IMG/VR virus record: IMGVR_UViG_3300045988_118801
Coordinates: 1-64,000 of that record
Source of the DNA: a virus
DNA length: 64,000 nt
Reading direction: 5' to 3' (one strand)
Shown: positions 1,343-54,726 of the stretch, piece after piece
Position numbering within the stretch: position 1 is the first letter of the stretch
Layout of the letters: each line of letters starts with the position of its first letter
Made by a program: the position numbers and the translations under genes
Notes under the pieces: model-generated
Told to the model about the DNA's origin: nothing
Seen by the model: the letters and a program-made list of their open reading frames with translations, nothing else
The model's database searches: none

Positions 1343-2914
1343 CTATTTACTTGCGCCTCCTACGCCATTTTGATTTGAATCAACATTACTGTTTCCGCCA
1401 TCTCCGTTATTATTGTTTCCGTATTGCAAGGACATTTCCTTCTCTTTCATTTCCATTTCAGCGTCACGTTCTTTCTGCCGTCTTACCTTTTCATCAGGCG
1501 AGCTTTCAGTATTCTTGTCAATCAGCGTTTCTTCCGAAATACCACCTGCACCTTTAAGAGAAATAAGCATGTTGTTGTATTCTGTATCGTTCTGCGGTCG
1601 CCATACCTTGAACTTAGCATTAATATCTATGCTTTCAAAATCAGTCACAGCAGTAGGATTCTTGCCGTTATTGACAAGTTCCTTTGCAAGACCTTCCTTA
1701 AACAGTCTGCACATCTTATCAGCAAAATTCTGCCAGTCAATAACACCCTGCAAGGCTGTTTCAATATCCAAAGACTGTGTAAGCATGATAGCTTGTGCTG
1801 AAATATCACCTGAACTTTTCACATCTTTAGGCAGCAGGAAAGTAGCACCGCATCCTTTCTGAATGGTTTCTTCCATAAGACCGAGCGTATCAATCATATT
1901 CTGCGGACTAGGTGGTGTCTTGAAGTCAGCACTACCGTTGCCTTCCATAGATGTATCATTCAGAATAACCGCACCTGCAACCTTTTCAGACAAAGCCTTG
2001 AAGTTGCCCCTTACATACAAGATACCCCAACCGTGCCGTTTCTGAATAACCAAGAACACGTTGTATATAACCTCGTAAACTTCGATTATGCTCTGTACGT
2101 TATCCCAAGCTACACGACCTCTCTTAGTCACCAAAGGTATCTCGCTGAATCCGTGCGGCACTGGCTTTTCCATTCTCCAACTATAAGGATTTACGCTGTC
2201 GTCATTCCATTCGCATACATATCTGTACATATACGTATCGTCATAGCTGTCAATGTACTGCGTATCTCCTACTGAATAATACACCGATTCAAGTATTCTG
2301 TCACCGTTCTCGTCATTGTGAGGGCAAAGAATATATCCATCTTCGTAACTTAACAGTCTAGCCTTGATTCTTCCTTTATAGTCAAAGTAGAATAAAAGAC
2401 CTGCATCTCCGTAAGACTTCTGCGCACTTACTGCCTTTGTACGCATACCGTCCATATTTCTCAAATTCCAATACTGCTTGAAGTCAATAAACGCCTTGTT
2501 CTGTTTTTCGTCAGGCTCTGTATTCATCAGAGTAAACTGCATCGGATTTCCGCACAAGTGAAGAACGTGCTTGTCCCTGATTAATCTCTGATAAGGAACA
2601 GCCATTTTCTTGTATTCTATCTCATACATCTGCCCTTTCTTGTTCTTCATAGTAATGGATGGAATATTCTCGTCAAACAGTACTTTGTGGCTCATAGGGT
2701 CTAGTTCTCTGACAAACTCATCCTGACTTACTACGTTTCTTTTGATATTAGACAGCGTAGCCTGAATCTTGCCGTTTATGGAAACTTCCTTATCCAAGAA
2801 ACCACAGTTGCAGTTATTATCAGCGACAGTACCCCTCGTGAAAGGCTTCTTCTCCAAAAGCCTTTCGGGGTCTGCCAACAATTCGTCAATAAGTTTTCTA
2901 GTCTTGCTATTCAT
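1343..2914 (-). CDS. putative portal protein
   Basis: About 520 aa. Lies in the terminase block and has a Gly/Asn-rich acidic C-terminal tail. ATG at 2914 overlaps the upstream stop (ATGAATAG). The track start at 2959 is TTG. Confidence 0.55.
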   Translation of the reverse strand: MNSKTRKLIDELLADPERLLEKKPFTRGTVADNNCNCGFLDKEVSINGKIQATLSNIKRNVVSQDEFVRELDPMSHKVLFDENIPSITMKNKKGQMYEIEYKKMAVPYQRLIRDKHVLHLCGNPMQFTLMNTEPDEKQNKAFIDFKQYWNLRNMDGMRTKAVSAQKSYGDAGLLFYFDYKGRIKARLLSYEDGYILCPHNDENGDRILESVYYSVGDTQYIDSYDDTYMYRYVCEWNDDSVNPYSWRMEKPVPHGFSEIPLVTKRGRVAWDNVQSIIEVYEVIYNVFLVIQKRHGWGILYVRGNFKALSEKVAGAVILNDTSMEGNGSADFKTPPSPQNMIDTLGLMEETIQKGCGATFLLPKDVKSSGDISAQAIMLTQSLDIETALQGVIDWQNFADKMCRLFKEGLAKELVNNGKNPTAVTDFESIDINAKFKVWRPQNDTEYNNMLISLKGAGGISEETLIDKNTESSPDEKVRRQKERDAEMEMKEKEMSLQYGNNNNGDGGNSNVDSNQNGVGGASK

Positions 2915-3506
2915 CTCTGTTCTCGTTTTCGTGTTCTTTAATACTATTCGGGTTCTCAATTAAATTCCAATGCTGCATCGCATATTCCTTTGTCTGCACC
3001 CAACACTCCCTATGTGTATGAGGGCATATCGTATTGAACTTGGTTTCTACGATTATCCTCTGCTCGTCCTGCTTCTCCGATACGGCAAACTTGTCATTCA
3101 GCTTGGTACGGATTTCAATATCAAGCTTGATAAAATCCTTCGCATCAAGTTCACCGTTCTCGTTCATCTCTTTAATCTTTGCAAGGTTCTTAATCAACTG
3201 CTCCTTGTTTTCTTCAAACGTAATGTCCTCGTAGTTCACCTTGCCGCTGGTTGCCGTGCCCGCATCTCCCTTGTCCGCATAATTGGACTTCATGTATTTT
3301 CTCAAATACCGCATCTTCTGACTTTTGTCGTACTTGTCAAGTGCATCAGAAGTAAAGTCCTTACCGAAAAGACCTGCATAGACAATGTTCTTGTCCTTGA
3401 AGCTTCTGCAAAGAATAACGTAGAATATATCCCTGACGCTTATCTCATGCTTCAGCTTCTTGCCATCGCCTATAATCTTCGTAATGTCCTCTATCGCTAT
3501 CGCCAT
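2907..3506 (-). CDS. hypothetical protein between terminase and portal
   Basis: ORF track, charged and helical. Its position would allow a packaging role, but no motif was seen. Confidence 0.45.
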   Translation of the reverse strand: MAIAIEDITKIIGDGKKLKHEISVRDIFYVILCRSFKDKNIVYAGLFGKDFTSDALDKYDKSQKMRYLRKYMKSNYADKGDAGTATSGKVNYEDITFEENKEQLIKNLAKIKEMNENGELDAKDFIKLDIEIRTKLNDKFAVSEKQDEQRIIVETKFNTICPHTHRECWVQTKEYAMQHWNLIENPNSIKEHENENRDE

Positions 3507-3527: not shown

Positions 3528-6191
3528 CTAACTCCAAAAACTATCGTCAAATACGTTTGCCTTATCCAATCCCAAATCGTTATCTTCTTCCAATGCCACT
3601 TCCGAAGCTATAAGCTCCTGACCGTATTCATATTTCAACAAGGGAAGCATCCTCATTGCGATAGGGTCTAGCAAGTCCATAGACCTGTTCTTTCCCAGCA
3701 TCTGATTCATTTCCTTCTTGTTGAAAAGCGTCTTTTTACCACTGGGCAAACCTTTCCATCTCACGACAGAACATTCTTCTATAAACTCTGTCTTTATTGT
3801 AATGGGATTGCTCATTCTTTTGTGAGGATAAACAGCTTCCGCAATCGAATCCTCAAATGAGAGCAAACCTCTCTTTATAACCTCTACCAATCGTCCGTAG
3901 CACTCGTCCTTCATGTTGTAGTGCATACGCCAATACAATCCGTTCGGTCTGTTATATGATTTAAAACCTATCGCACCGTTGATATAGTCGTTTATATAAG
4001 CAGCCCTGATAGCATCGTAGATTATATGATTGTCAGGTATTCCGTGCCTTTCTGCCATCTGCATCAGCATCTCTGCGTTAAGTCGTGGCGTACTTGTGCA
4101 TAATATCTTATAGTCTATGATATGCAGACCGTTCCAAACAAGTATAACCGTGTTATCGTCACCAGTATCAGCCAAGTCTGCCGTTATCCATTTGTCGTTG
4201 TTCTTTCGTGGGTCGTTGTTGAAAACGCTTTCGGCAGTAGCGTATGGGATAGGTGCTTCTGCATCGTTTTTTAAAGATACATTCCAATTACCTTCAATAA
4301 GCTGTTGTGCTTGTCTGCCACCAACTGCTGCAACACTACCAGCGTAGTCCATATTGTTACCGATAGAAGCCTTGTTCTCTGACATTCTACCCAAATAGAA
4401 TGTAAAGCTTTTTATAAGGTTCTTATATGTAAATCCTCCACCTAAAGATTTTATCTTTCTATCAATATCGTCCCTGCATTTTCTGTAAACTTCTTCTTTT
4501 GAATCACCCCAAACAACATCGTCTACATTCTCTCCTTGAAGATAGAAGTATCTCACGACACCGTTTCTATCTTCCATTATTTGCCCATCCAATCCAACAT
4601 ACCAATCAATGAATTTTCTAACCCAGCAGTCTTTTTCAGGGTTTGTAGTTCCTCTGAATTTACCCGACCATTTAGCTTTACCACGGTTACGTGATAGTAG
4701 ATATTTAAACGTAGAAAACTCATACGACGTTAATTCGTCCATGTATATTAAATCGTACTGGCTACCTTTCCAAGTTTCAGTTACCTTACGTATATTTTCA
4801 TCGTTAATCTGCCTGAAATCAACAAACGCCCCTGACGGAAACCTTACACGTGGAGGGTCTGTTGATTTCACTTCAATGTGATTACCATAGGCAGATTTAA
4901 AATCATCTGTCAAAGAACCACCACCCTTCAACTCCGAGAATGTTCTTCGTGTAAAACATGCACGGAAATTAGGGTCTAATGATGGTTCGGCAACAGAAAG
5001 GATTGCAGCAAAAGACTTTCCACAGTTTCTTGTTATAACGTATCCATCTGTTAAATATATATGCTCGTTACCCGAAACATTTATACATCTAACATTTTTT
5101 TTGCCGACAAGTTTATAATCCATAATGCTTAGCATTGTGTTACATTTTCTATCTTTTTCAGTTATAGCCTTATTTTTTTTTCTATCTAAGCAAAACAAAT
5201 CTTTATCATCCTTAGTCCACACTAACAATCCGTAAGATTTAGCACAGTTTACCTCTTTCCCATTTTGTATTCTTTTTGTTTTATCTGTAATGTGTATTGA
5301 ACATCTTCCACCTATACTCCATATTAATTCTTGAATATCTTTTGCTAATCTTTCACTTGTTGTTCTATAACTAACTCTACTTCTTTTATTTGTATTAGAT
5401 TGAGAACAGCATCCATCTGTATCAAATAAACCTCTTAGCAATTCCATTCTATCTTCTATACTTGAATACTTATATATGTTAGGTATAAATTTATCATAAG
5501 ACAATTTGCCCCACAATCCAAGTTCCTTCAAATACTCAACAACTTCTTTATTTCTGATGCAATAATGCAGGCTATTCTTATTTTTACTTTCCTTAACTAT
5601 ATCATATCCTAACCCTTTTATTCTTTCAATAGTTTGATAATCCTTAGAATGGCAAGCAAGGTCAGCTCTATGTAACTTATTAGATAAACAACCATCGCCT
5701 ATTAGACAACCTAGTAAATACGGATGTATTTTAAGATTATCTTTTTTGTAAAAAGATACAGGCTGAGTAAGAGGTATTCTCAATCTATTCACATGTCTTT
5801 TATCCCTATTCTTAGATTCATCAATATATTTTATAATATCTTCGGAAGAAATATCAATAATATTTCCATACCTTTCTTTGACCATCCAACGGTGAGAAAG
5901 AGCACTCTGAACCTTCCTTCCATCTTGTAACGTAAACTCAACAACATCTTGTAGTCCTTTGTCTATTACAAAATTAACCACTTGATTCCCACCCATTGGA
6001 TTATGTATTATATCTCCTACCTTTATATCTCCCATTTTTCTAAATCCGTCAGGAGTTGATATTAAGGCATCCATTGGTTGAGGGTTGAGTACCCCTCCGC
6101 CTATAACCACGTCTATATTGCTGCGGACGAAATTTTCTTGAAATCCTTCCTGCGGTCTGATAATTCTTATTTCACTTTCTTCATTTGCCAT
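3528..6191 (-). CDS. terL: terminase large subunit, interrupted by an intein in the Walker A P-loop
   Basis: 887-aa ORF. The exteins join to ..VVIGGGVLN|CGKSFAAIL.. (GxxxxGKS). The C-extein is about 500 aa, a terminase-typical size. The inserted domain has Hint blocks and two LAGLIDADG motifs. Confidence 0.8.
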   Translation of the reverse strand: MANEESEIRIIRPQEGFQENFVRSNIDVVIGGGVLNPQPMDALISTPDGFRKMGDIKVGDIIHNPMGGNQVVNFVIDKGLQDVVEFTLQDGRKVQSALSHRWMVKERYGNIIDISSEDIIKYIDESKNRDKRHVNRLRIPLTQPVSFYKKDNLKIHPYLLGCLIGDGCLSNKLHRADLACHSKDYQTIERIKGLGYDIVKESKNKNSLHYCIRNKEVVEYLKELGLWGKLSYDKFIPNIYKYSSIEDRMELLRGLFDTDGCCSQSNTNKRSRVSYRTTSERLAKDIQELIWSIGGRCSIHITDKTKRIQNGKEVNCAKSYGLLVWTKDDKDLFCLDRKKNKAITEKDRKCNTMLSIMDYKLVGKKNVRCINVSGNEHIYLTDGYVITRNCGKSFAAILSVAEPSLDPNFRACFTRRTFSELKGGGSLTDDFKSAYGNHIEVKSTDPPRVRFPSGAFVDFRQINDENIRKVTETWKGSQYDLIYMDELTSYEFSTFKYLLSRNRGKAKWSGKFRGTTNPEKDCWVRKFIDWYVGLDGQIMEDRNGVVRYFYLQGENVDDVVWGDSKEEVYRKCRDDIDRKIKSLGGGFTYKNLIKSFTFYLGRMSENKASIGNNMDYAGSVAAVGGRQAQQLIEGNWNVSLKNDAEAPIPYATAESVFNNDPRKNNDKWITADLADTGDDNTVILVWNGLHIIDYKILCTSTPRLNAEMLMQMAERHGIPDNHIIYDAIRAAYINDYINGAIGFKSYNRPNGLYWRMHYNMKDECYGRLVEVIKRGLLSFEDSIAEAVYPHKRMSNPITIKTEFIEECSVVRWKGLPSGKKTLFNKKEMNQMLGKNRSMDLLDPIAMRMLPLLKYEYGQELIASEVALEEDNDLGLDKANVFDDSFWS
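5025..6083 (-). mobile_element. intein with LAGLIDADG homing-endonuclease domain (class-3-like)
   Basis: Block A-like (P)QPMDALISTPDGFRKMGDIKVGD. Block B SALSHRW. LAGLIDADG motifs LLGCLIGDGCL and LLRGLFDTDGC. Block F VRCINVSGNEHIYLTDG. Block G YVITRN followed by +1 Cys. The C-junction is exact (Asn codon 5025-5027). The N-junction is uncertain by a few codons (6083-6089). Confidence 0.75.
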
Positions 6192-7186
6192 TAATCACTC
6201 TCCCACACTTCGTAGGCTAGCAATGATTTGTATGCTTTTTCAGAAATCAAGCCTTTACTGAAATAATCTTCGGCAATATCTTTAATATATGCTTCCTTTT
6301 CTTTCTTATAAGCTTGAAATGCTTCTTTTTCAGTATTGAACCGCCCCAAGTAAACTTGCTCTCCACCTTTTGATAATCTTGAACTAAAAGTCCCTTGTTT
6401 CGTTTTACTGACACCAATCATTGTGTCGCCACGATTTTTATCTGATTTTGTAAATAACGTATTAATAAATCTAGGTACTATCAGACATGTGTTGGGGCTG
6501 TAAGCCTTGTTTCCGTGAACAATAATATCCTTGTCAAGTTCATATCCGTCTTTGTACCCATTTTCAGGATTTTCAAACCATTCCCTGAATTTTTTATAAT
6601 GAAGCCATTCTTCGCAAACATAAGCATCTTTATATGTCAGATTTTCGGCTTTATAATCTTCGCAATAACATCTTCTAAGCATGTGCATCCACGCTGAATA
6701 TGCTGGATAGTATTTACCGTCTTTATCTACGCAAAATCTTTCATCATCGTTTATCCCAACACCGTAAACCAATTCTCCTCTTGAAGATTTAGATATAGCC
6801 TCTTTCGCATAACATTCGCAACCACTTCCTCTTGATATATGACTATTAGGAATTATCCAAAATTCCTTGCCACACCTTTTACATATTAAACAAACTTTAG
6901 TATGTGAATCTACATACTCTACCTTTGAATAATCATACCTGTCACCGTGTATTTTCTTTGACTTTTCTATAAAGTATTCCTTATCCATTACAACACCGCT
7001 ACACTTCGCACATTTGCACCCCTGAAGATGTATTCTTGGTAATACCCAAAATTCTCCGTGTTCGGGGCAGATAACACATACTTTTGTGTTGTTGTTTACA
7101 TATTCAACCTTTGAGTAATCATACTCATCTCCGTGAACTTTTCTTGCTTCTGCAATAAACTGTTCCGTTATTTTTCTTTTTCCCAT
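6191..7186 (-). CDS. homing-endonuclease-like protein: two zinc-ribbon repeats, an HNH-like region and an AP2-type DNA-binding domain
   Basis: Two copies of HGDxYDYSKVEYVxxxTKVCxIC...GxxC. ELDKDIIVHGNKAYSPNTCLIVPRFIN is HNH-like. GVSKTKQGTFSSRLSKGGEQVYLGRFNTEKEAFQAYKK is AP2-like. Its stop overlaps the terL start. Confidence 0.55.
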   Translation of the reverse strand: MGKRKITEQFIAEARKVHGDEYDYSKVEYVNNNTKVCVICPEHGEFWVLPRIHLQGCKCAKCSGVVMDKEYFIEKSKKIHGDRYDYSKVEYVDSHTKVCLICKRCGKEFWIIPNSHISRGSGCECYAKEAISKSSRGELVYGVGINDDERFCVDKDGKYYPAYSAWMHMLRRCYCEDYKAENLTYKDAYVCEEWLHYKKFREWFENPENGYKDGYELDKDIIVHGNKAYSPNTCLIVPRFINTLFTKSDKNRGDTMIGVSKTKQGTFSSRLSKGGEQVYLGRFNTEKEAFQAYKKEKEAYIKDIAEDYFSKGLISEKAYKSLLAYEVWESD

Positions 7187-7307
7187 AATTCTAAAATTTT
7201 AAAAATTTAACTTAATTTCACAATTCACAAAAAAATAAAGGGAAAGGCGAATCATGGAAAGTCCCTTGTCGAAAGGTTAATTACTCCTTTCTATCCCTTT
7301 ACATACG

Positions 7308-7450: not shown

Positions 7451-8098
7451 ATGAAATTCACTAAGGAAGAAGCCTTTGAAAGCCTCAAAGGTATTTTGAC
7501 GAATAGCGGCAAGAAACCCTTGCGCATGTCGGAAAGAAGCATACAGAAGCAGTTAGAATCCCTAATGCCTCTAGTTGCGAATGATGAAATGGAATTGAAT
7601 GACTTCATTGCAAAGGTGAAAGATACTTTCAGTGTAATGAACTCAAATGCTGAAAAGGACAATTCCGATTTTGTCAATCAATGGAAAAGGGAGCATCCCG
7701 ACCAAGAACCAGAACCTATTGGTGGTAGTGGTTCGGATAATCCGCAGATTAAAACTCTTATGGATGAAATCAAGGCGATGAGAGAGGAAATGAACGCAGG
7801 TAAGCGTGAAAATGCTATCAAGGCAAAACGTAACGAGCTTGCTTCGGCTTTGAAGGGGAAAGGTGTAAAGGATGATGAATGGATTAACGCATATCTTTCG
7901 GAAATTAATATTACAGAAGATATGGATGTTGATGCTAAGGCAGATTCTTCACTTAAAGTCTACAATCGTTCAAGAGCTGATATGGGTGATGGGGTTAATC
8001 CTAGAAGTGCTTCCAACGGTGATACCAAGAAATATAAAACTATGTTCGATGACATCAGAAAAGAAAGAGAGAAGATGCAGGAGAACGAAAAAGTCTAA
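7451..8098 (+). CDS. putative scaffolding protein
   Basis: Highly charged, helical 215-aa protein. It is the first gene of the head operon, upstream of the capsid gene. Confidence 0.4.
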   Translation: MKFTKEEAFESLKGILTNSGKKPLRMSERSIQKQLESLMPLVANDEMELNDFIAKVKDTFSVMNSNAEKDNSDFVNQWKREHPDQEPEPIGGSGSDNPQIKTLMDEIKAMREEMNAGKRENAIKAKRNELASALKGKGVKDDEWINAYLSEINITEDMDVDAKADSSLKVYNRSRADMGDGVNPRSASNGDTKKYKTMFDDIRKEREKMQENEKV

Positions 8099-33268: not shown

Positions 33269-34177
33269 CTATTTTCCCACTTGATTATATTTGATTATTA
33301 TCAATTTAATTTTGTTCTTCTTGCAATACTCTTTTAATCTTTTATCTCTTTCTACTTGTACCTTAAAATCATCTTCACTTTTATGGAAATAAGAGTTAAA
33401 CTCGTAATGCTGTATACCATTAAATTCGATGAATGTATTATGTTGTGGTAGAAAGAAATCAACCCTTAAAGAATTACGAGAAAACAAATAACGTTCTAAT
33501 GTTATTCTATATTGTCTTTTATATTCAATGTCGTTATTTTTTAAATATTCTTTTATTTTTAATTCTCCTTTTGAGGATTTACATATAGGGCATCCGTGAC
33601 CACTTAAATGAGCGTTTGGCTTCTGCTCAAATTCGCCATGTTTGGGGCATAAAATAATCACGTTAGTCCAACTATTTACATACTTAACACGACTATAATC
33701 ATAAGTATCGCCATGAATAGATTTCGCTTTTTCTATAAACCAATCTGTGTTTTTTGAATATAACTCCGAAACTTTTTCTCTTCCACATAAAAAGCAGCCT
33801 TGACCTCTCAAGTGATTATTAGGCGTTTGAAAAAAATCACAATTATGTTTTTTACATATAATACATACTTTAGTTGAACTATCTATGTATTTAACTTTTG
33901 AATAGTCATATTTATCACCATGAATTTTTTGTGCCCTACTTATAAATTCACTACAAGACATTCTTTGAGAATCTGCTATCTTTTTTCTTTTACAAAATCT
34001 ACAACCATGACCAATCAAATGTTTTATAGGTTTTTGAGAAAAAACTCTTCCACACTTTTTGCATATTATCAAAACCTCTGTAGAATTATTAATATAATTC
34101 ACTAAAGTGTAATCATAATTGCCTCCATGTATTTTTATAGCTTTTTCAACAAACTCTTCCTTTGTTAATCTCTTCAT
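33269..34177 (-). CDS. homing-endonuclease-like protein: three zinc-ribbon repeats plus a Vsr/DUF559-like nuclease C-terminus
   Basis: Three copies of IHGxxYDYSxVxYxxxxTxVxIxCxxHGxFxQxPxxHLxGxGCxxC. C-terminal RVDFFLPQHNTFIEFNGIQHY. Confidence 0.5.
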   Translation of the reverse strand: MKRLTKEEFVEKAIKIHGGNYDYTLVNYINNSTEVLIICKKCGRVFSQKPIKHLIGHGCRFCKRKKIADSQRMSCSEFISRAQKIHGDKYDYSKVKYIDSSTKVCIICKKHNCDFFQTPNNHLRGQGCFLCGREKVSELYSKNTDWFIEKAKSIHGDTYDYSRVKYVNSWTNVIILCPKHGEFEQKPNAHLSGHGCPICKSSKGELKIKEYLKNNDIEYKRQYRITLERYLFSRNSLRVDFFLPQHNTFIEFNGIQHYEFNSYFHKSEDDFKVQVERDKRLKEYCKKNKIKLIIIKYNQVGK

Positions 34178-53340: not shown

Positions 53341-54726
53341 ATGAGTAAATTCAGCAAAAAAGAAAAATCAGTAAAAAACAGAGCTGGCGGTATCGCTTAC
53401 AAAGAGAGTGAAAACATGGAACTTGTATCTATGCTATTGTGTTCTTTTATGAACGATAAATTCTATGAGAATACAAAAGATTTTGAATCAAGACTTGAAA
53501 CATGTATAGAAAAGTGTGATAAGCTATTTGCGGCAAAAGCAATAGTATATGCCAGAAAAGAATTTGGAATGAGAAGTGTAACTCATGCAGCGGCTTCAAT
53601 ACTCGCCAAGCATGTGTCAGGTGAACCTTGGGCAAAATCATTCTATAATAATGTCGTTTATCGTTTGGATGATATTACTGAGATAATGGCTTACCATTTT
53701 TCCAAACAGAATAAGCTATCAAGTGCTATGAAGCGTGGGTTTGCTATGGCTTTCAACAGATTTGACGAATACCAGATTGCAAAGTACAAAGGCAGTAATA
53801 ACTCAATCAAGCTTGTCGATGCGGTAAATATGATTCACCCTAAAAAATCTGCAAAGAACGGAGATGCTATAGAAAAGCTGGTTAATGGAACTCTGAAATG
53901 CTCTGAAACATGGGAAAGCATGTTGTCTGATGCCGGCAACGACAAAGAAGCAAAAATAAAAGTATGGAAGAGCTTAATTTCTGAAAATAAGCTTGGATAT
54001 ATGGCACTACTTCGTAATGTGCGAAATATCGTATTGCTTGAAGACGATGAATTAAAAGCAATGTGCTATAAGGCACTTGTAAACAAAGACGCTATCCATA
54101 AATCATTGGTTTTACCTTTCAGATTTTTGACTGCATACGAACAGTTATCATTTGATTCAGAGGCGATGTCATACATAAGTCAGGCTTGCGAAATTGCTTG
54201 CGACAATGTACCTAAACTTGATGGTAAAACTCTGGTTGCACTTGATGTAAGTGGTTCTATGTATCGTGTTTCAAAGATAGCTTCTTTATTTGCGGCAGCA
54301 TTTGTTAAATCTAATCATTGTGACCTTGTTTCTTTCGATTATTCTGCCAGATACATAAATGTCAACTGGAATGACAGTTTGCTGACAATCCAAAGACAAT
54401 TAAACTTCTGTGGTGGTGGAACAAATTTCCCTTCTATATTCAATGTTGCTAACAAGAAATACGATAGGGTTATCATTCTTTCGGATATGCAAAGCTGGAT
54501 GAACAGACATTCCCCTAAACAAGCGTTTAAGTTTTATAAATCAAAATTCGGAATTAAAGACTGTAAGGTTTATTCAATAGACCTTCAAGGATATGGAACT
54601 TTACAGCTACCCCAAAAAGATGTATTCTGTCTTGCTGGCTTTAGCGAAAAAGTCTTTGACCTTATGAATCTAATAGAGCAGGGATATAATGCTCTTATGG
54701 ATAAAATCAATGAAATAACGCTGTAA
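53341..54726 (+). CDS. rsr: TROVE-domain (Ro60-like) protein with a C-terminal vWA domain
   Basis: N-terminus NRAGGIAYKESENMELVSMLLCSFMNDKFYE (TROVE-like). MIDAS LDVSGSM, then a vWA-like region to the C-terminus. Confidence 0.65.
   Translation: MSKFSKKEKSVKNRAGGIAYKESENMELVSMLLCSFMNDKFYENTKDFESRLETCIEKCDKLFAAKAIVYARKEFGMRSVTHAAASILAKHVSGEPWAKSFYNNVVYRLDDITEIMAYHFSKQNKLSSAMKRGFAMAFNRFDEYQIAKYKGSNNSIKLVDAVNMIHPKKSAKNGDAIEKLVNGTLKCSETWESMLSDAGNDKEAKIKVWKSLISENKLGYMALLRNVRNIVLLEDDELKAMCYKALVNKDAIHKSLVLPFRFLTAYEQLSFDSEAMSYISQACEIACDNVPKLDGKTLVALDVSGSMYRVSKIASLFAAAFVKSNHCDLVSFDYSARYINVNWNDSLLTIQRQLNFCGGGTNFPSIFNVANKKYDRVIILSDMQSWMNRHSPKQAFKFYKSKFGIKDCKVYSIDLQGYGTLQLPQKDVFCLAGFSEKVFDLMNLIEQGYNALMDKINEITL

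Follow-up and report, generated by a model that had tools for sequence, protein, structure and literature searches.

We analyzed a 64,000-nucleotide stretch of viral DNA (IMG/VR virus record IMGVR_UViG_3300045988_118801, positions 1 to 64,000; the whole stretch is called the window here), in which the gene for the terminase large subunit, terL, carries a long in-frame insert. In the 887-amino acid (aa) product, Pfam Terminase_6N covers precursor residues 387-532 and LAGLIDADG_3 covers residues 249-302 (E-value 8.9e-11). An SPP1-type portal gene (Pfam) lies downstream of terL, and the gene for the major head protein is on the opposite strand. Because of the Terminase_6N match and these two neighbors, the open reading frame (ORF) is the large terminase of a tailed phage. 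We consider it very likely that the insert, located between Asn36 and Cys390, is a mobile class 3 intein with a two-motif LAGLIDADG endonuclease inside the Walker A motif of TerL. The features of the locus are as follows, with the basis of each assignment in brackets.

3528-6191, minus strand: terL precursor ORF, large terminase with intein, 887 aa, uninterrupted (ORF list, Pfam, homologues).
6084-6191, minus strand: N-extein, Met1-Asn36, ending in the first half of Walker A, G-V-L-N (translation; collinear with intein-less homologues).
5025-6083, minus strand: intein, 353 aa, Pro37-Asn389 of the precursor, PQPMD...VITRN (intein-less alleles, AlphaFold model).
5784-6083, minus strand: N-terminal splicing region, intein residues 1-100, blocks A and B (aligns to the gp41-1, Msm DnaBi1 and Mch DnaB1 inteins).
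5886-5894, minus strand: block B His64-Arg65-Trp66 (positions B:10, B:11 and B:12), which are TerL His100, Arg101 and Trp102, in SALSHRW (translation, alignment).
5130-5783, minus strand: LAGLIDADG homing-endonuclease domain, intein residues 101-318 (Pfam; absent from natural 140-aa mini-inteins).
5691-5723, minus strand: LAGLIDADG motif 1, PYLLGCLIGDG, with intein Asp130 (alignment, translation).
5412-5441, minus strand: LAGLIDADG motif 2, LLRGLFDTDG, with intein Asp223 (alignment, translation).
5025-5129, minus strand: C-terminal splicing region, intein residues 319-353, blocks F and G (alignments, translation).
5085-5087, minus strand: block F:4 Cys, intein Cys333 and TerL Cys369, in VRCINV, the predicted first nucleophile (alignment, conservation).
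5025-5033, minus strand: block G Thr351-Arg352-Asn353 (G:5, G:6 and G:7), the end of VITRN, with Arg in place of the penultimate His (alignment, translation).
5022-5024, minus strand: +1 Cys, TerL Cys390, with which the C-extein begins, at x4 of the Walker A motif GxxxxGKS (translation, homologues).
3528-5024, minus strand: C-extein, CGKSFAAIL... to the stop codon, with the remaining ATPase domain and the nuclease domain (Pfam, translation, homologues).

Removal of residues 37-389 leaves a 534-aa TerL whose N-terminal region reads ...VVIGGGVLN^CGKSFAAIL... (insertion points are marked ^ throughout) and which is collinear with intein-less homologues of 531-536 aa. The spliced sequence matched 1,761 homologues; length classes and insertion states were read from the best 120 of these, whose lengths fell into three groups (~531-560, ~670-760 and ~840-905 aa). 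Below, P-numbers denote homologous proteins and L-numbers the terL loci of relatives that were compared with the window. GGGVLN^CGKSFAAIL is the uninterrupted sequence of the intein-less homologues P0004 (81% identical), P0005 and P0006, and short-class homologues lacking the insert read VLNCGKSFAAIL, or VLSCGK, VLNAGK, VLGGGK and the like. At the DNA level, the P-loop of the intein-less L002 reads GGAGGTGGAGTTTTGAAC up to the insertion point and TGTGGAAAATCATTC after it. Because the intein-less alleles read straight through, this comparison fixes the limits of the insert as PQPMD...VITRN, with the N-junction at Asn36^Pro37, Pro as intein residue 1 and Asn389 as the last. The sole formal ambiguity of register comes from the presence of Asn at both junctions, and the other register, which starts with Asn and ends with Arg, is unworkable as an intein.

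An earlier note made from the letters of the window had described an insertion of ~353 aa inside Walker A of the 887-aa TerL, had taken Pro37 as its first residue in place of an N-terminal Cys, Ser or Thr, and had proposed intein-less terL alleles as the check on the N-junction. The insertion proved to be exactly 353 aa, its flanks rejoin to GGGVLNCGKS as in the intein-less homologues, and these homologues place the junction at Asn36^Pro37 and so fix Pro37 as residue 1. The motifs SALSHRW, LLGCLIGDG, LLRGLFDTDG, VRCINV and VITRN were all found where the note had placed them, as were Arg388 instead of the penultimate His and Cys as the +1 residue. Its span of 5025-6089 is correct at the lower limit only; the upper limit should be 6083, as 6089 adds the codons of Leu35 and Asn36 (6 nucleotides, nt).

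Block positions were numbered according to the MP-Be DnaB intein (His65, Trp67, Cys320 and Thr339). On this scale, the triad of Trp B:12, Cys F:4 and Thr G:5 (Trp-Cys-Thr, WCT), which had been noticed earlier, is in register with the characterized inteins Msm DnaBi1 (6bs8) and Mch DnaB1 (6rix). When a profile of the splicing domain was compared with PDB, the intein matches ranged overall from 6e-10 to 3e-5, including gp41-1 (E 6e-10), Msm DnaBi1 6bs8 (E 1.2e-5) and Mch DnaB1 6rix/6riy (E ~2e-5). Profile alignments placed SHHW on HQW and VRCINV on VRCVEV of the class 3 inteins 6bs8 and 6rix, and in a single-sequence alignment the Thr of VITRN fell on the Thr of GMVPT(HN) in 6bs8. In NCBIfam, models of intein-containing DnaB, GyrA and RecA were matched only below threshold, which adds nothing beyond "intein".

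Eleven inteins, including that of the window, occupy the same position, between Asn and Cys of GVLN^CGKS (designated site a). They always start with PQP, end with T-R-N or T-C-N and are followed by Cys; 3 of the 11 are natural 140-aa mini-inteins. Although their pairwise identity ranges from 58 to 96%, His64, Trp66, Cys333, Thr351 and Asn353 (intein numbering) do not vary in any of the 11, whereas the adjacent positions F:3 (R/C) and G:6 (R/C) vary. Thus, the residues required by the class 3 mechanism are, according to these alignments, all present, in register and conserved.

We further searched 1.84 billion cluster representatives exhaustively with HMMER and found 15,489 relatives at E <= 1e-3 and 1,960 at E <= 1e-30. 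Among 220 related intein copies representing the nearest relatives, His B:10, Cys F:4 and Asn G:7 were each present in all 220, Thr G:5 in 219 and Trp B:12 in 215; the class 3 signature is carried by all nearest relatives of the window intein. The commonest first residues among related inteins were Ala (118) and Pro (31), and homologous class 3 inteins start one-to-one at residue 1 of the window intein with A, P, E, L or D. The closest inteins outside site a are 32-37% identical, have A, P, E or L as first residue, end in ...THN^S/T and reside in the P-loops of TerL, PhoH-like and other ATPases. The signature counts in the 220 copies, together with the 15,489 relatives, support the assignment of the window insert as a class 3 intein within a very large class 3 family. 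Among the nearest relatives (P0164-P0204), many are hosts of 1,000-2,200 aa with 2-5 matched stretches that contain several class 3 inteins, for example, PhoH-like ATPases with inteins at both GK^AQPL and LPG^PQPL.

An AlphaFold2 model of the intein, built on a 41-sequence alignment, had a mean predicted local distance difference test score (pLDDT) of 92.4 and a predicted template modeling score of 0.91. The top Foldseek match in PDB was PI-SceI (E 3e-16, template modeling score (TM-score) 0.66-0.70, query-normalized), followed by the Tli and Pho VMA inteins and PI-PfuI; the endonuclease lobe matched I-DmoI. Among class 3 mini-inteins, Mch DnaB1 and Msm DnaBi1 were also matched (TM-score 0.77-0.80, target-normalized). 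The predicted structure thus has a HINT fold with blocks A, B, F and G and a two-lobed LAGLIDADG fold.

The acidic residues of both LAGLIDADG motifs (LIGDG and DTDG) are kept in 8/8 full-length site-a inteins. Between the window intein and the L003 intein (88% aa identity), the ratio of nonsynonymous to synonymous substitution rates (dN/dS) was 0.07 overall and 0.05 in the endonuclease domain, at a dS of ~0.9-1.1; more distant pairs are saturated, and the usable estimates are those of the window-L003 pair and a few other regional ones. These values support purifying selection on the LAGLIDADG domain, and the two-motif endonuclease that had been read from the sequence agrees with the Pfam match, with both acidic residues and with this selection.

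Several pairs of close relatives differ in the state of the P-loop. Exteins were 99.8% identical between P0009 (empty) and P0013 (site a), and 97.8% identical between P0008 (empty) and P0011 (site a). P0097 (site a) was 99.4% identical in its exteins to P0089, which has an intein at GK^T (the second position, site b, see below), and 98.5% identical to P0096, a member of another site-b lineage. Conversely, the inteins of the window and P0013 are 88% identical while their exteins are 76% identical. In comparisons anchored on codons, L002 (empty) and L003 (site a) differed at 8 of 1,611 extein nt, 5 of them synonymous and within 25 nt of the junction (binomial P ~1.5e-6), and L006 (site a) and L007 (site b) differed at 75 of 1,623 positions, 18 of which lay between -13 and +32 of the junction. 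Such junction-clustered differences are the pattern expected for co-conversion of flanking extein during homing, and the sequence comparisons support an intein that is mobile, with a population pattern of gain and loss. We also considered the mini-intein as a separately swapped lineage; this reading was set aside, as nucleotide identity between the window and L004 was ~80% in the splicing blocks and ~86-90% in the extein, with no sharp break. A separate observation concerns P0035 (890 aa), a chimeric TerL that has a diverged N-terminal ATPase part with a site-b intein and a C-terminal part which, from about ...NNDPRKNNDKWITADL... on, looks identical by eye to P0002, suggesting recombination inside terL.

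Site b is the classic P-loop position GK^S/T, 9 nt (three residues) downstream of site a. Site-b inteins begin with A, D, E, L, P, F or, once, C; they end with T-H-N, have Ser or Thr as +1 residue and Leu at B:11. Those of P0012, P0021, P0089 and the TerL of Parabacteroides phage PF672P2 share with the window intein the TerL family, the P-loop, the class 3 signature and the LAGLIDADG domain, and both full-length and mini forms exist. However, they are only 30-39% identical to the window intein and, unlike its PQP start and Cys+1, have a varied first residue, a THN end, Ser or Thr at +1 and Leu at B:11. In a neighbor-joining tree, the site-a clade was sister to one TerL site-b lineage, and among the sequences inspected it was seen only in the TerL family of the window, down to 47% identity (P0163). 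Phage PF672P2 (L005, OP172820.1) is the nearest isolate (30% identity); its TerL (L005 2363-5203, locus tag PF672P2_00026) is annotated as "hypothetical protein" and contains a class 3-type site-b intein, GGGK^ALIISELVLTP...DHLW...CRCIKV...VVTHN^TFG. The site-b intein that starts with Cys is in P0114 (888 aa; GGGK^CNPLST...) and retains W, C and T. WCT inteins with an N-terminal nucleophile were noted as a minority type (PMC2807308), to which P0114 belongs.

Class 3 inteins in terminase P-loops, including those with Pro1, were already described in 2009-2016 (PMC2807308, PMC5050341). The prototype is the MP-Be DnaB intein of mycobacteriophage Bethlehem, with Pro1, His65, Trp67, Cys320 and Thr339 (Tori et al. 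2009/2010, PMC2807308). In the same work, phage terminase large subunits and ATPase P-loops are given as usual homes of this class, and 37 WCT inteins appear in its supplementary tables. As judged from the published description, MP-Be DnaB and the window intein share Pro1, Cys F:4, Thr G:5, the terminal Asn and a phage P-loop NTPase host, as well as nearly equal numbering and size (His65/Trp67 and 341 aa versus His64/Trp66 and 353 aa); they differ in the host (DnaB helicase versus TerL), the +1 residue (Thr versus Cys) and the penultimate residue (His versus Arg). A 2020 survey found 1,701 class 3 inteins in NCBI nr, 82.5% of which had LAGLIDADG motifs, and a 2025 survey put the TerL inteins of actinobacteriophages at 293 and the class 3 inteins of all host proteins at 287.

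TerL is the commonest intein host in mycobacteriophages, where two Walker A sites lie one residue apart and where both splicing and endonuclease activity were shown (Kelley et al. 2016, PMC5050341). The actinobacteriophage TerL inteins (PMC5050341; Gosselin et al. 2025 preprint, 10.1101/2025.01.02.630785) resemble that of the window in the LAGLIDADG endonuclease, the location in the terminase ATPase domain and the occurrence of plus and minus alleles. They include both class 3 and class 1 inteins, splicing was shown and two cut intein-less alleles. Their hosts are Terminase_1-type TerL, whereas the window TerL is of the Terminase_6N type and belongs to an uncultured phage whose nearest isolate infects Parabacteroides; in the window, the insertion is also ahead of the x4 Cys of GxxxxGKS and thus three residues upstream of the classic position K^S/T. 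Of the class 3 relatives with solved structures, the best are Msm DnaBi1 and Mch DnaB1 (6bs8, 6rix and 6riy; profile E 1.2e-5 to 2.8e-5), with which the window intein has the block F/G pattern VRC.EV...EHLYL...T.N in common; these differ in having Ala1, G:6 His, +1 Ser, no endonuclease and a bacterial DnaB host with insertion at GK^S.

Two further inteins are relevant to the unusual residues of site a. The Bvi IcmO intein of Burkholderia vietnamiensis (Tori and Perler 2016, PMC5222942) likewise combines the class 3 signature with Cys+1 and two thioester intermediates. By experiment it uses Cys F:4 first, Cys+1 is unable to replace Cys F:4, and in 2016 it was "the only currently known" Cys+1 case of class 3 (PMC5222942); we found no later Cys+1 example of this class in the literature from 2017 onward. 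It differs from the window intein in being a 142-aa mini-intein of a plasmid IcmO protein without endonuclease. The AceL NrdHF intein (Hoffmann et al. 2020, PMC7891396) splices without a G:6 His; the Arg at B:11 forms a hydrogen bond with the C-scissile carbonyl, and the intein is killed when His is introduced at G:6. Like the window intein, it is of class 3, comes from a phage-like metagenomic contig, lacks the G:6 (C1:6) His and has Arg at B:11 (N3:11), as in SHRW. Unlike the window intein, it is naturally split, has MCT rather than WCT, no block F His and an NrdF host, and is accompanied by a free-standing GIY-YIG endonuclease. Features specific to the window intein are its host, a Terminase_6N-type TerL from a phage with relatives among Bacteroidales phages, the insertion ahead of the x4 Cys, the combination of Pro1, Arg G:6 and Cys+1, and the coexistence with site-b inteins.

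Based on the class 3 signature, the following mechanism may be proposed. Because the intein splits the P-loop, the unspliced precursor would be unable to form it, and TerL would be an ATPase only once spliced. Cys369 (F:4), activated by His100 (B:10) with Trp102 (B:12) and Thr387 (G:5), would attack the Asn36-Pro37 bond to give a branched intermediate with a block F thioester; the N-extein would then be transferred to the +1 Cys390, cyclization of Asn389 would release the intein, and an S-to-N acyl shift would yield GGGVLNCGKS with an intact Walker A. Since the penultimate His is replaced by Arg388, help for Asn cyclization probably comes from elsewhere than G:6, the polar or basic B:11 residue (Arg101) being a candidate. 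At the DNA level, the endonuclease is expected to cut intein-less terL at the P-loop codons during co-infection, and repair of the cut allele would copy in the intein with short tracts of flanking extein.

Two features of site a are uncommon among relatives. In nearly all class 3 inteins the +1 residue is Ser or Thr; Cys+1 is a minority state, found in ~9 of 193 related intein copies, one of which (P0213) is at the equivalent ...^CGKS position of another ATPase. G:6 is His in 210 of the 220 related copies and Arg or Cys in the site-a clade, and it is exactly this clade in which B:11, usually Leu, has become His, Arg or Asn (Arg101 in the window). It is a reasonable guess that the B:11 residue compensates for the lost G:6 His in site-a inteins. 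A more far-reaching proposal, which we regard as unlikely though worth stating, is that the site-a lineage forms a distinct class 3 sub-type, PQP...T[R/C]N^C, in which the role of the penultimate His would have moved to B:11, both branched intermediates would be thioesters (on Cys F:4, then on Cys+1), TerL maturation would be thiol- or redox-sensitive and site-a and site-b inteins would compete. Were this sub-type real, the state of the host cytoplasm would gate genome packaging in these gut-anaerobe phages; also, the site-a and site-b homing sites would overlap by 9 bp and alleles would cycle between empty, site-a and site-b states.

Several points count against the assignment of the window insert as a mobile class 3 intein or against parts of it. 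We infer the splicing chemistry with its block F intermediate from the signature and phylogeny, and predict endonuclease cleavage on indirect evidence (near-identical exteins with and without the intein, the junction-clustered differences and the dN/dS of 0.05). The penultimate His, the usual helper of Asn cyclization, is absent, and the coupling of G:6 and B:11 comes from one clade and thus from one evolutionary event, which makes it suggestive only. The G+C fraction is 0.31 in the intein and 0.40 in the extein; since the window mean is 0.353, the lower value of the intein is weak evidence of foreign origin. Finally, Cys+1 makes a class 2 route, with direct attack by the +1 residue, chemically conceivable.

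Such class 2 (KlbA-like) splicing, in which Cys390 would attack the N-junction directly and the block F Cys would be a non-essential relic of class 3 ancestry, appears improbable. For an intein bearing the class 3 signature, either route is conceivable in principle as long as Cys F:4 has not been mutated (PMC5222942), but the WCT triplet is absent from class 2 inteins by definition (PMC2807308) and is both present and conserved here: Trp B:12, Cys F:4 and Thr G:5 stay the same in all the diverged site-a inteins while the neighboring F:3 and G:6 vary. Still less probable is a decayed, splicing-dead or cleavage-only intein in a non-functional terL allele, derived from a defective phage or an assembly artefact. 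The loss of the penultimate His would fit decay; yet class 3 inteins without a G:6 His do splice (PMC7891396), the 887-aa ORF is uninterrupted, a 99%-identical protein on a 79-kb contig represents 31 member sequences, the catalytic residues are all kept in 11 diverged copies and dN/dS is as low as 0.07. Moreover, TerL is essential, and no second terL was seen among the window ORFs of at least 250 aa. A class 1 intein with its true N-terminus at a nearby Cys, Ser or Thr, favored only by the fact that Cys or Ser is the first residue of most inteins, is refuted by the allele comparison, as intein-less alleles fix the insert as PQP...TRN, the alternative register would start with Asn and end with Arg without a terminal Asn, no Ser or Thr occurs in the insert before intein residue 9 or 10, and homologous class 3 inteins begin with A, P, E, L or D at the same position.

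With the class 3 assignment, annotation of the 887-aa ORF should separate a TerL of 534 aa from a class 3 intein of 353 aa. The value to intein biology is modest and lies in one TerL family that has full-length inteins, 140-aa mini-inteins, empty alleles and a second site three residues away. The combination of Pro1, Cys+1 and no penultimate His makes site-a inteins a convenient system for Asn cyclization that is free of G:6 His, for redox sensitivity arising from two catalytic cysteines, and for the competition of two homing elements for one target. For protein ligation, a compact mini-intein of class 3 that tolerates Cys+1 could also be a useful tool.

Between terL and the portal gene, a gene for a 199-aa protein (2907-3506, minus strand) had no family match; its position is kept in all relatives (185-210 aa). 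No recognizable small terminase was identified near terL. A whole-window Rfam scan at gathering thresholds gave 0 matches, and a tRNA scan of the window found none.

The gene upstream of terL shares one base with the terL start (TAATG) and is located outside the intein:

6191-7186, minus strand: 331-aa gene with two treble-clef/DUF723 repeats, a central domain and a C-terminal AP2-like domain (PHROG, Foldseek).

Its product matches PHROG 953 (E 1.8e-69) and PHROG 374 (E 4.6e-44), both labeled HNH endonuclease. The gene is present upstream of terL in the window, in the intein-less L001 and in L004, and is absent from L002, L003, L006, L007 and L008, in which 140-170 bp separate terL from a divergent gene. 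In L009, a 61-aa ORF (62-247) that ends at the terL start resembles the AP2-like C-terminus of the 331-aa protein; with stop codons in front of it, this ORF looks like a decayed remnant of the gene. Because of this sporadic occurrence among relatives, including the intein-less L001, the 331-aa gene appears to have been gained or lost independently of the intein, in keeping with a mobile gene. The earlier note had concluded that the packaging locus was invaded twice. The PHROG HNH family match and the sporadic presence favor this idea; on the other hand, a Pfam scan of both halves of the protein found no nuclease domain, Foldseek on an AlphaFold model (pLDDT 86) recognized the C-terminal AP2 domain only and no nuclease fold, and 2 of 16 homologues have Lys in place of the candidate catalytic His (VHGNK), while Lys219-Asp220 is invariant. 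A second invasion, by a putative endonuclease gene, is therefore plausible rather than established.

Additional observations were made elsewhere in the window. A conserved element of ~70 nt (~7215-7290, minus strand; TAAAGGGATAGAAAGGAGTAATTAACCTTTCGACAAGGGACTTTCC...CCTTTCCCTTTA), located in the interval from the 331-aa gene to the divergent gene at 7451, is nearly unchanged in L004 and diverged in L001, where the end sequences are similar; it could be a candidate structured RNA or regulatory site tied to the mobile gene. A second free-standing homing-endonuclease-like gene (33269-34177, minus strand; 302 aa) matches PHROG 559 "HNH endonuclease" (E 1.7e-68) and PHROG 9084 "homing endonuclease", and its three treble-clef (DUF4379/DUF723) repeats are 44-48% identical to the N-terminal repeats of the 331-aa gene. 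Another gene (53341-54726, plus strand), for which no Y RNA was found in the window at Rfam gathering thresholds, encodes a phage Ro60-like protein of 461 aa that matches Pfam TROVE (E 1.9e-23) and vWA_Ro60 (E 1.4e-9).

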